From Frankiaceae bacterium (lineage in GTDB: Bacteria > Actinomycetota > Actinomycetes > Mycobacteriales > SCTD01), in the NCBI GenBank assembly GCA_016650445.1, contig JAENVS010000012.1, positions 1,653 through 65,652 on the forward strand: a stretch of DNA of 64,000 nucleotides, read 5' to 3'. The notes below the pieces were generated by a model. It did no database searches and was not told the DNA's origin. It was given only the letters and a program-made list of their open reading frames with translations. The translations under genes were made by a program, and so were the position numbers. Below, piece after piece: positions 15,251 through 23,005 of the stretch; positions within the stretch are counted from its first letter, which is position 1; every line of letters starts with the position of its first letter.

Positions 15251-15649
15251 ATGACGACGCTGTACGACGAGGTCGGGGGCGAGCCGACGTTCCGTCGCCT
15301 CGTCGACCTCTTCTACGCCGAGGTCGAGGGCGACCCGGTGCTGCGGCCGCTGTACCTCGAGGAGGACCTCGGCCCCGGGGGCGCGGCCCGCGACCGGCTG
15401 TCGCTGTTCCTCATGCAGTACTGGGGCGGTCCGACGACGTACTCCGACAACCGGGGTCACCCGCGGCTGCGGATGCGGCACGCCGGCTGGCGGATCGGCA
15501 GCGCCGAGCGCGATGCGTGGCTGGCGCACATGATGCGGGCGGTGGCTGCGTTGGACATCCCCGAGGACGCCCGCGAGCAGCTGGCCGACTACCTGACGGG
15601 TGCGGCCCACTCCCTCGTCAACGCGCCGGACGAGACGGACGCTCGCTGA
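15251..15649 (+). CDS. glbO: Group II truncated hemoglobin
   Basis: YDEVGG..QYWGGPTTYSDNRGHPRLRMRH..AHSLVN matches the GlbO (Rv2470) pattern. ATG 15251; an alternative GTG lies at 15245. Confidence 0.9.
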   Translation: MTTLYDEVGGEPTFRRLVDLFYAEVEGDPVLRPLYLEEDLGPGGAARDRLSLFLMQYWGGPTTYSDNRGHPRLRMRHAGWRIGSAERDAWLAHMMRAVAALDIPEDAREQLADYLTGAAHSLVNAPDETDAR

Positions 15650-15989
15650 GCCGGCGGGCGACGATCCAGCCGACGATGACGCCGGCGGCGTCGGCGCAGA
15701 CGTCCCGGACGTCGCCGCTGCGGCTCGCCAGCAGCAGCGACTGCGCCACCTCCGACAGGGCCGCGTAGGCGAGGACGGCCACGAGCCCGGCGCGGTGCGC
15801 CGCGAACCGCCACCACGTGGTCGCCGCGAGCAGCGCGAACAGGCTCGCGTGTACGAGCTTGTCCAGGCCGATCCCGCCCCCGCCCGGGGCACGCGGCGAG
15901 AAGAGCACGACGAGGCTGAGCACGACGACCGCGACGAACGCGACCGTCGCCCGCCGGTCGCCCGTGCCGGCGCCCGGCTGCGCAGTCAC
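15618..15989 (-). CDS. VanZ-like membrane protein
   Basis: Four hydrophobic segments and DKLVHA/DV.AD..G VanZ-like motifs. GTG at 15989 proposed as start. Confidence 0.55.
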   Translation of the reverse strand: MTAQPGAGTGDRRATVAFVAVVVLSLVVLFSPRAPGGGGIGLDKLVHASLFALLAATTWWRFAAHRAGLVAVLAYAALSEVAQSLLLASRSGDVRDVCADAAGVIVGWIVARRLSERPSRPAR

Positions 15990-16011
15990 CGCGTCAGGTG
16001 TCGCGGGTCGA

Positions 16012-16031
16012 TTTGGCAGCAAGCCCGGATG
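16012..16031. repeat. Left inverted repeat TTTGGCAGCAAGCCCGGATG
   Basis: Reverse complement of 17870-17890 with 1 mismatch and a 1-nt indel. Confidence 0.8.
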
Positions 16032-16072
16032 TTCGTCGGGAACTGTCAGAGGTGACTTGCACACTCGCAAGT

Positions 16073-17891
16073 ATGCCGTCCCGACCGCTGCTGCCCGTGC
16101 GCGTCGTGCCGCCGCCCAGCGGCACGAGCTGTGGGACGCGGCTGCGGGTCAGCCGGGAAGAGCGGGTCATGCTGCGCGCCGTCGGTGAGCACCTCGCGGC
16201 TGCTCGCGGATGTGACCTGCCTGCCGCGGTGCGGGGCGAGGCGCAGAACGACAGGGTGAAGCGCCTCAGCGCACGGTTCGGCATCCAGTCCCGCTATGCG
16301 GGCAGCATCGTGCGAGCCAATGACGCGCAGGTCCGGCTCGCCCGGGAGGGCCTGTGGCGGCACAAGCTCGGCCTGCAGCGCGGGATCGCAACCCTCGAGC
16401 GGCGGCTCGCGGCCGCGACTCGACGGGCGTGCGGCTGCGGCCAGCGACGGGGCTGCGAGGCGTGCAAAGACGGCTACCCGAACCGCAACGAGTGGTGGAG
16501 CAAGCGCCGGCGCCTCGACATGCTGAGAGGCCAGCTCGTCGAGGTCGAGCGCCGGCTGGCCGAGAAGGACTACTCGATCGTGTACGGCGGGCGGCGGCTG
16601 CTCAACAGGCGGCACCACTTGACCGAGGCAGGACTGACGCTCGCGCAGTGGCTGCAGCAGTGGGCCGATGAGCGGCTGTTTCTGTCCTGCGTTGGCAATG
16701 TCGGCACTACCGGCGGGAATCCGTGCCTGTCCTTGACGCAGGATCCAGACGGGCTCATGTACTTGACCGTGTCAGTGCCCGAGCCGGTGCAACGCCGGCT
16801 CGGCATACCAGCCCGAGTCCGGCTGACACACCCCGTCCCAGTCGCTCATCTGCCCGAGCTCGTGGAGCGGGTCACCGCCCGGCGCAGCACCGCGATCACC
16901 ATCACCTTCGAGCAGGGGAAGCGCGGCGAGCACGTAATGCTCCGGGCAGCCTGGACACACGAGCAGACCCCGGACCAACCGGACCTGCAGGTGTTACGTA
17001 CTCGCCGGGTCGTCGCGCTGGACCTCAACGCCGACCACCTGGCGCTGTCCCGGCTCAACCCCGACGGCAACCCCGTCGGGACGCCGCTACGGATCGCGCT
17101 CGAACTCAAGGGTCTGCCCACCGGCACGAGGGACGCGAGACTTCGCGAGGCGATCACGCAGGTGCTGCACGCCGCGGCGGAGTTCGGTGCCCAGGCGATG
17201 GTGGTCGAGGAACTTGGTTTCGAGCAGGAGACGACCCGGGAGAAGCACGGCCGCAAGAAGGCGTTCCGGGCGCTGATCTCCGGCTTCCCGACGATGGCGT
17301 TTCGCAACCGGCTGGTTCCGATGGCTGCCCGTCAGGGTCTTGCGGTCATCGCGGTCGACCCGCGGTATACGTCCAAGGCCGGTGGCCGGGACTGGTCCTA
17401 CGTGCTCGCCGGTGGCCCGACGGCCACTGAGGCATCCAAGAACGTCGCGACCCGGCATCAAGGTGCCGCGGTCGCGATCGGTCGGCGCGGACTCGCGCAC
17501 GGCCTGACTGCCAGCACACCGGCCCGCACGCGGGCACGAATGCTGAGCCGTCGTCCCGCACCCCACCAGCAGCAGCCACAGACCGCGTCAGCGGCCTCGG
17601 CGGCTGGGGATGGAAGCACGACCGGCCCCGCGGGTCAGGTGCGGCTCAGCGACAGCGCGCAGGTCAGCCGTGACGCCCGCGACCGGCCGGTTCAAGCGGC
17701 CCGGAGCAGTCCGCGGGTCCGATCGGCGTCCATCCCAGGCCTTCGGGTCGGGCGTGGCAGCGCTGACCGGACTGGCGGGGCGAGCCGATCGTCGCGGATA
17801 GGTTCCGCGACCGGTCAGCCGCTCGGGCTGATCGGAACAGGAGCAGACCGGGTTGAGCTATCAACCGTGCATCCGGCGCTTGCTGCCGAAC

Positions 17892-17908
<17 letters not shown>
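16073..17908 (+). CDS. TnpB-related (RuvC-fold, Cas12/TnpB-like) protein lacking zinc ribbon and RuvC-III Asp
   Basis: Motifs VVALDLNADHLAL (Asp codon 17021-17023), AMVVEELGF (17207-17212), AVDPRYTSK (17357 onward) and TRHQGAAVAIGRRGL (His 17456-17458). ATG at 16073, alternative GTG at 16052. The ORF only stops at 17906-17908, inside the flanking ettA. Confidence 0.7.
17870..17890. repeat. Right inverted repeat CATCCGGCGCTTGCTGCCGAA
   Basis: Pairs with 16012-16031. Ends 1 nt before the ettA stop codon (17892-17894). Confidence 0.8.
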
Positions 17909-19577
<1,669 letters not shown>

Positions 19578-20183: not shown

Positions 20184-20256
20184 GCGCCCGTAGCTCAGGG
20201 GATAGAGCAGGTGCCTTCTAAGCACTTGGTCGCAGGTTCGAATCCTGCCGGGCGCG
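20184..20256 (+). tRNA. tRNA-Arg (anticodon TCT)
   Basis: Manual cloverleaf: acceptor GCGCCCG/CGGGCGC, D arm GCTC..GAGC, anticodon loop CTTCTAA (TCT at 20217-20219), T arm GCAGG-TTCGAAT-CCTGC. CCA is not encoded. Confidence 0.9.
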
Positions 20257-22928: not shown

Positions 22929-23005
22929 GGTGGGTGTAGCTCAGCTGGTAGAGCACCGGGTTGTGATCCCGGTTGTCGCGGGTTCGAGCCCCGTCACTCA
23001 CCCCA
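22929..23005 (+). tRNA. tRNA-His (anticodon GTG)
   Basis: Manual cloverleaf with G-1 (22929), acceptor GTGGGTG/CACTCAC, anticodon loop TTGTGAT, T arm GCGGG-TTCGAGC-CCCGT, encoded CCA at 23003-23005. Confidence 0.9.

Follow-up and report, generated by a model that had tools for sequence, protein, structure and literature searches.

A zinc-finger-less, His-type TnpB-like protein as the most likely effector of a target-duplicating mobile element in a Frankiaceae bacterium

The DNA analysed here (the window) is a stretch of 64,000 nucleotides from a Frankiaceae metagenome-assembled genome (contig JAENVS010000012.1, positions 1,653 to 65,652). It contains a mobile element of 1,888 bp (16006-17893), and the only open reading frame (ORF) between the inverted repeats of this element encodes a TnpB-like protein. 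The ORF spans 15998-17908 on the + strand; the public annotation starts it at the ATG at 16073, giving a hypothetical protein of 611 residues (16073-17908), and its stop codon lies outside the element. Most likely, this protein is the TnpB effector of a non-autonomous insertion element, of a type that lacks the zinc finger and has a His in the place of a catalytic Asp. We lean, with some reserve, towards a nuclease that is active or partly active at an Asp-Glu-His (D-E-H) centre, is guided by RNA and serves the maintenance of the transposon.

By sequence profiles and predicted structure, the window protein is a member of the TnpB/Cas12 superfamily, with a predicted WED-REC-RuvC architecture and a RuvC domain that retains an Asp and a Glu. 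A single-sequence search of the ORF against the Protein Data Bank gave no match; a profile made from 24 relatives found Cas12f1 (9i8y, E 8e-4), the match covering RuvC-II to the YTS strand. Foldseek returned AsCas12f (E 2e-8), Cas12m2 (E 7.5e-5) and a bacterial RuvC (TM 0.61), and hhalign aligned the family profile with 21 canonical IS607-type TnpBs (E 3.4e-4), bringing DLNADHLA onto DxGvxHLAT and VEDL onto IEDLN. In the AlphaFold2 model the confident core comprises residues 1-480 (16073-17512), and residues 481-611 are disordered and overlap the RNA region described below. Single-sequence searches with hidden Markov models (HMMs) gave matches to TnpB models of Pfam and NCBIfam that are real but stay below the curated cut-offs and end at YTS. 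The PF07282 match spans profile positions 4-29 only, and an HMM scan with isolated C-terminal peptides gave no match.

The residues of the active site could be placed one by one, all on the + strand. Asp317 of RuvC-I (17021-17023, in VVALDLNADH / VDLNADHLA) is invariant, and hhalign pairs it with the D of the canonical GvDxGvxHLAT motif; Glu379 of RuvC-II (17207-17209), in VVEEL, where Glu379/Glu380 occupy 17207-17212, pairs with the E of IEDLN. The strand VDPRYTSK follows, its Val beginning at 17354 and its Asp lying at 17357. At the place of the canonical CxxC...CxxC zinc ribbon there is a linker of 26 residues, AGGRDWSYVLAGGPTATEASKNVATR (17378-17455), with no Cys at all. Next comes the last core helix of the AlphaFold2 model (residues 461-473), with R461 as its first and His462 as its second residue. 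His462 (17456-17458, in TRHQGAAVAIGRRG) is invariant in the family and appears to take the position of the RuvC-III catalytic Asp, the motif reading TR-H-QGAAVAI here and DR-D-VNAAHNI in the canonical TnpB of locus L180. Two traits of the superfamily, the canonical RuvC-III Asp (DRDxN / NADxN) and the C4 zinc finger (TNB domain), are both absent from the window protein.

Most of this had been anticipated in a preliminary description of the locus, made from the sequence alone. Its assignment to TnpB/Cas12 agrees with the 9i8y, AsCas12f and hhalign results, by which the protein is of the TnpB/Cas12f type; the TnpB profile searches it had proposed gave the sub-threshold matches just mentioned. 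The RuvC landmarks (Asp, Glu and the YTS strand) lie where it had placed them, except that it began VDPRYTSK at 17357, which is 3 nt late. Its reading of a His at the RuvC-III Asp position is borne out by the motif register, the helix position and the literature. Its statement that the protein has no zinc ribbon holds at the canonical position, but the helical N-terminal half carries a four-Cys cluster, CGCGQRRGCEAC (16430-16465, + strand), perhaps a zinc site away from the canonical position. In the 24-sequence alignment A1, this cluster is kept in the Frankia/Blastococcus/Nocardioides branch and is missing from the Streptomyces branch.

The His is not a peculiarity of one copy. In alignment A1, D317, H462 and R471-R472 are invariant and E379 is conserved in at least 90% of the sequences; in a second alignment (A2) E379 is invariant as well. 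Asp321 is almost invariant too. All of the ~190 family sequences that reach the motif have His there and none has Asp or Glu, which answers the question of its conservation raised in the preliminary description, while the residue right after the His varies (E/D/H/Q/A). A CxxC after YTS occurs in 0 of the ~190 members, and the linker is 20-49 residues long. Since the His is invariant in every member reaching the motif, its substitution for Asp is, judged by these alignments, a family trait rather than the result of chance or decay. The family is large: we found 161 close matches to the window protein, at least 582 loci in species-representative genomes of Actinomycetota, 3,474 representative proteins at E ≤ 1e-3 and homologues in 68 plasmid records, and no homologue in the phage collection. 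More distant relatives were also seen on plasmid records of Thermus (34), Thermaerobacter (1), Rhizobium (1) and Pseudomonas (2); the family is therefore not restricted to Actinomycetota. Carriers that can be cultivated include Blastococcus saxobsidens DD2, Nocardioides ginsengisegetis and Streptomyces strains.

These protein traits are not new, as both are those that define RIIIr-4, a major TnpB clade described by Altae-Tran et al. 2023 (PNAS, PMC10691335), which has His instead of the RuvC-III Asp and lacks the C4 zinc finger. From conservation, RIIIr-4 was argued there to be probably active, and the change was read as a catalytic rearrangement. The present family shows both defining traits, a conserved His for Asp and no C4 zinc finger, and it is by these traits that we provisionally assign it to RIIIr-4. 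It shares with RIIIr-4 the retained RuvC-I Asp and RuvC-II Glu, a transposon-borne existence, partly with a serine-recombinase TnpA, and a 3′ non-coding RNA region. It differs in two respects: the published clade is represented in viruses, whereas no phage copies appeared in this analysis, and the inverted repeats and 10-bp duplication seen in the window branch are given in the same study for DDE-linked branches only (PMC10691335). Nety et al. 2023 included RIIIr-4 in an ortholog survey and a screen for the target-adjacent motif (TAM), and saw no a priori ground to expect inactivity; within the accessible text of that paper, a member of another rearranged clade, RII-r5, cleaves DNA and is the only one explicitly reported as active (PMC10278001).

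The element itself is well delimited. DNA homology to its closest relatives (L004 and L005) covers 16008-17895, with inverted repeats at both limits, and aligning the ends of these three elements defines a degenerate left terminal inverted repeat, GGTcgaTTtGGCAGCAAGCCCGGATG (16006-16031, +), and a right one, CATCCGGCGCTTGCTGCCGAACCT (17870-17893, +), with which the element ends. The repeats of the branch are 24-26 bp long with the consensus (c)GGTTCGGCAGCAAGsCCGGATG; in the Streptomyces loci, where the detection of repeats by local alignment was swamped by chance matches of GC-rich DNA, motif anchoring was used instead. Direct repeats of 10 bp, of a sequence that differs between elements, flank 7/7 elements of the window branch. 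Here the left copy is AGGTGTCGCG (15996-16005), with a conserved TC just before it (15994-15995), and it is identical at 8/10 positions to the right copy, AGTCGTCGCG (17894-17903), which also forms the last codons of the ettA gene and the start of a would-be guide flank. The same junction layout, ..TC[AGC-N6-T]c-GGTTCGG ... CCGAACCt[AGC-N6-T].., is seen in eight elements besides that of the window.

A contig without the element (L214) shows the state before insertion. Its EttA is 96% identical to that of the window and the gene order SSB-ettA-vanZ-globin-MscS is the same. On the window + strand its empty site reads CACG-TC-AGTCGTCGCG-CTTGAG, or CACGTC|AGTCGTCGCGCTTGAG across the junction, and the occupied site reads TC-AGGTGTCGCG-element (16006-17893)-AGTCGTCGCG-CTTGAG. 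Because the empty site holds a single 10-bp copy, both the insertion and the 10-bp duplication are proven. We had also considered the 10-bp repeat as a recombination core or an internal guide and rejected this, as the repeat differs among elements with 84-86% identity and has the sequence of the one copy in the empty site.

Ends of the window type are not confined to His-type genes. At two loci (L180:466-2069 and L206:2935-4562) they enclose canonical IS607-type TnpB genes (NF038280, 366 bits) with CxxC...CxxC, DRDVNAAHNI, a 10-bp duplication and a stop-codon junction, the duplication in L206 being AGCCTGCTCT, of the window-type pattern. They also bound a non-coding element of ~350 bp (L094:562-909 and L129:1272-1624) that resembles a miniature inverted-repeat transposable element (MITE) and is flanked by a 10-bp repeat, AGCGGTGGAT / AGCGGTCGAT, with CTC before it. 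Since the same ends flank His-type and canonical TnpBs, these ends are those of an element type whose cargo can be a TnpB of either kind. A metagenome scan with a 16-nt end motif gave 120 loci, mostly noise, none of which encodes a His-type protein; the few recognisable elements among them were the MITE and canonical TnpB genes. BLAST of the element end against plasmids gave no match. The end motif may resemble the inverted repeats of the IS6 family (GGTTCTGTTGCAAAG), and we take this as a lead only.

The canonical IS607-family TnpBs of L180 and L206 (NF038280; IS1535/IS607 type) resemble the window protein in the WED-REC-RuvC architecture, the DxG/NxxHLA and IEDL motifs, the YTS/PSS strand and a 3′ RNA that overlaps the gene end, and at these two loci also in the inverted repeats, the stop-codon target and the 10-bp duplication. 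They differ in having CxxC...CxxC and DRDxNAAxNI where the window protein has its 26-residue Cys-free linker and TRHxxAAVAI. The window protein is also ~100 residues longer at the N terminus and scores far under the family cut-off (26 vs 100 bits).

There is no tnpA in the window and no TnpA in the six other elements of the window branch; neither a DDE nor a tnpA gene was found in the element or nearby, in the window and in the neighbourhoods of relatives examined. The transposase would therefore have to be supplied in trans. An enzyme of the DDE type, and not the IS607 serine recombinase that goes with the Streptomyces branch, is suggested by the inverted repeats and the 10-bp duplication. 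Both features are lacking by definition in IS607 (PMC6188088) and IS200-IS605 elements (PMC13565253). Membership of IS607 was considered for the window element and is ruled out by its inverted repeats, its 10-bp duplication and the absence of an adjoining TnpA.

The Streptomyces branch, with ~38-40% identity to the window protein, does fit IS607. An IS607-family TnpA (NF033518, 191 bits) lies directly upstream in L068, an IS607 TnpA is upstream in ~16-20 of 80 loci of this branch, and solo copies have the same left end as those bearing TnpA. The right end is sharp (...CTAGGAACGGT, beyond which the flank varies); GG is present at the ends and this branch showed no duplication, as expected for IS607 (PMC6188088). 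The right ends of this branch (L003-L083, for example L016:4530-4603) form a nested imperfect palindrome of ACCGTTC..GAACGGT, CTGAGC..GCTCAG and GAGTCCTG-GCAA-CAGGACTC, with a shifted pairing register in a minority subgroup (L040, L067, L077 and L079); the RNAalifold consensus of the branch omits its inner hairpins.

The disordered tail of the ORF seems to be mainly an RNA gene. RNAalifold and pair counts on the seven elements of the window branch predict a conserved structured RNA at 17544-17894 (+), a candidate omega-RNA scaffold. In this branch 90.2% of the cells are paired, 33 pairs show double changes and the covariation is 0.305, against 0.148 in shuffled and at most 0.083 in slid alignments. 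In the Streptomyces branch (34 sequences) the corresponding values are 96.9%, 20 compensatory pairs and 0.252, with 0.088 for the shuffled and at most 0.059 for the slid alignments. Variability at the three codon positions is 0.22/0.18/0.50 in the core of the window branch, with the periodicity gone beyond ~17591, and 0.49/0.40/0.91 in the core and ~0.35/0.40/0.50 in the tail of the Streptomyces branch, whose conserved C-terminal peptide WQQDSLPLSL is the right end in translation. In both branches conservation drops sharply at the right end of the element. No Rfam family matches the 3′ RNA, which looks like an omega-RNA scaffold that would be expressed and used with a guide. An invariant UAGGUUC (17799-17805) is complementary to the terminal GAACCUA (17888-17894) in 7/7 elements; because neither ever varies, RNA pairing and a repeated protein-binding motif are not separable here.

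For the use of a guide, the TAM, catalysis, the biological role and the transposase, we infer the following scheme. The element inserted within the ettA stop codon, after the T and before the GA, and duplicated 10 bp; its mobilisation would need a transposase supplied in trans. Its 3′ 350 nt, overlapping the unstructured ORF tail, would encode a structured omega-RNA scaffold, and transcription running on into the flank would add a guide that matches the empty site. The complex of protein and RNA would then recognise the vacant site, where the conserved ..TC immediately precedes the duplicated AG.., and the RuvC centre D317-E379-H462 would act on it, most likely by a cut or nick that favours retention of the element, as with canonical TnpB. 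The invariance of D317 and H462 and the near invariance of E379 indicate that this active site is constrained.

Several points weigh against an active, guided nuclease in a mobile element. The hhalign profile-profile alignment halts before RuvC-III, where the zinc finger is missing, and when the canonical TnpB of L180 was taken as the only partner, neither pairwise BLASTP nor a global alignment nor hhalign produced an alignment that could be used. The equivalence of His and Asp would thus come from the motif register, the position in the modelled helix and the literature, direct alignment having given none. Covariation in the window branch comes from only seven sequences in three subgroups, and the RNA is predicted from sequence. 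The left repeat of the window copy has a 3-nt insertion and one substitution and its left duplication copy has two changes; since the left repeat is degenerate, this copy may no longer be mobile. Neither the metagenome scan for the end motif nor the plasmid BLAST yielded a transposase partner for the inverted-repeat elements, and the literature search turned up no biochemical work on a His-type TnpB. Finally, there is the precedent of Cas12m2, whose conserved RuvC site contains a His and serves to bind DNA, not to cut it (PMC10442227).

This last point leads to the chief alternative, which we regard as possible but doubtful, namely that the protein is a nuclease-dead, RNA-guided DNA binder whose D-E-H site holds one metal and clamps the DNA, silencing or marking its targets. 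The change from Asp to His costs a carboxylate, and the TNB zinc-finger domain, which aids substrate positioning in Cas12f and TnpB, is gone. His is, however, a normal metal ligand in nucleases of the RNase H fold, as in the DEDH site of Argonaute and in His983 of the Cas9 RuvC domain. Cas12m2, also a structural neighbour of the window protein by Foldseek, has a conserved HDD site, holds one Mg2+, binds DNA without cutting and silences transcription (PMC10442227). The two proteins share a compact TnpB-like fold and a conserved His in the RuvC triad; in Cas12m2 (type V-M) the His replaces the RuvC-I Asp, the TNB zinc finger is kept and the system is CRISPR-linked, whereas in the window the His is in RuvC-III and there is no CRISPR array. 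RIIIr-4 was sampled in the published TAM screen, and the accessible text of that paper reports no active member there (PMC10278001). On the other hand, the authors who described RIIIr-4 expect activity, and in TnpBs that are fully inactive more than one catalytic residue has usually been lost (PMC10691335), in contrast to the invariant D317 and H462 and the nearly invariant E379 of this family. The term 'nuclease-dead', used in the preliminary description, is therefore not supported by the conservation pattern.

The likeness to TldR repressors drawn in the same description concerns descent from TnpB, a non-canonical RuvC-III region and possible RNA-guided binding. TldRs are exapted and immobilised: they have lost the transposon ends and adjoin, in fixed synteny, the genes that they regulate. 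A fixed neighbourhood also marks other TnpBs that were exapted and became immobile, among them the flagellin- and DppD-linked groups (PMC10691335). The window family, in contrast, is mobile and keeps its D-E-H residues; the element has ends, a proven duplication and an empty site. For each of five relatives the genomic neighbourhood is a different and unrelated one, so there is no fixed gene neighbourhood, and the element type keeps its ends and moves, with an IS607 TnpA kept in some relatives. These findings also speak against the DNA-binder reading, and a domesticated regulator was considered and rejected on the same grounds (mobility, unrelated contexts, retained ends). No finding points to a domesticated repressor; the trait is the signature of a published clade. 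As to 'RNA-guided', an RNA partner is plausible from the covarying 3′ 350 nt, while the use of a guide is our inference; overall, the preliminary description was right in its observation and half right in its interpretation.

A further reading, which we think unlikely, places the novelty in the element type and not in the protein: elements of ~1.6-1.9 kb and MITEs of 350 bp in Actinomycetota, with GGTTCGGCAGCAAG ends and a canonical or His-type TnpB as the sole gene. These would represent, with the same low probability, an undescribed mode of transposition for TnpB-only elements, via an unrecognised trans-acting transposase or a TnpB-dependent insertion. In such a case the role of the His-type protein might be that of a one-metal binder or a nickase instead of a double-strand nuclease.

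That the TnpB-like protein is itself the transposase, its RuvC centre cutting 10 bp staggered at TC^AG...T^GA and joining the ends, seems to us quite improbable. The protein is encoded by the only ORF between the inverted repeats, the 10-bp duplication shows a staggered cut of the target, neither the element nor its surroundings contain a tnpA or DDE gene, and the same ends surround solo canonical TnpB genes and the 350-bp MITE. Two very different types of TnpB between the same ends, however, suggest cargo rather than an enzyme that recognises these ends, and we know of no strand-transfer activity for any TnpB or Cas12. Both IS607 (PMC6188088) and the IS200/IS605 family (PMC13565253) can transpose without TnpB, and solo TnpBs are generally mobilised in trans (PMC10691335). 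A decaying pseudogene, or a functionless ORF artefact of GC-rich DNA, is hardly credible: the left end of the window copy is degenerate, the reading frame continues past the right end to a stop in flanking DNA and its last 130 residues are predicted to be disordered, but this reading is already largely refuted by the strong third-position excess in the core of both branches and by a core that, against relatives at 35-75% identity, has no frameshift and keeps all family-invariant residues.

RIIIr-4-type traits mark a large described TnpB clade for which we found no biochemical characterisation in the literature. The present locus offers a well-delimited example: its ends are exact, its empty site is proven, covariation supports a candidate scaffold of the guide RNA, and both guide and target can be predicted. 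It permits a clean test of whether a D-E-H RuvC domain without the zinc finger cuts, nicks or only binds DNA. The occurrence of canonical and His-type TnpBs in one element type that makes duplications and inserts at stop codons is a separate lead on how solo TnpBs move.

The insertion affects two neighbouring genes. In the empty site of L214, ettA ends with ...KRDD TGA and the start of vanZ lies 1 nt downstream, and the two genes were probably co-transcribed before the insertion. The insertion split this stop codon into T and GA, and the terminal two bases of the element restore the stop as TAG, one target base plus the element's last two; the encoded ABC-F translational throttle (ettA, 17892-19577, - strand) is therefore unchanged. 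The element now parts ettA from the vanZ-like gene (15618-15989, - strand), whose true start, by comparison with the empty site, is the GTG at 15989; a 150-residue call of this gene (15618-16070, -) was discarded as an artefact that runs into the left element end. More generally, GGTTCGGCAGCAAG ends insert at TC^AG (window 15994-16005 and 17892-17903; L001, L002, L004-L007, L129 and L206). The right junction closes the long open frame of a convergent gene in 8/9 elements with such ends, the stop being made up of the T of the target and the AG (AA in L206) with which the element ends, where the empty site has TGA. These stop-codon junctions reflect either target choice or selection. Two tRNA genes on the + strand (20184-20256 and 22930-23002; RF00005, 70.6 and 64.8 bits) lie a few kb from the element.

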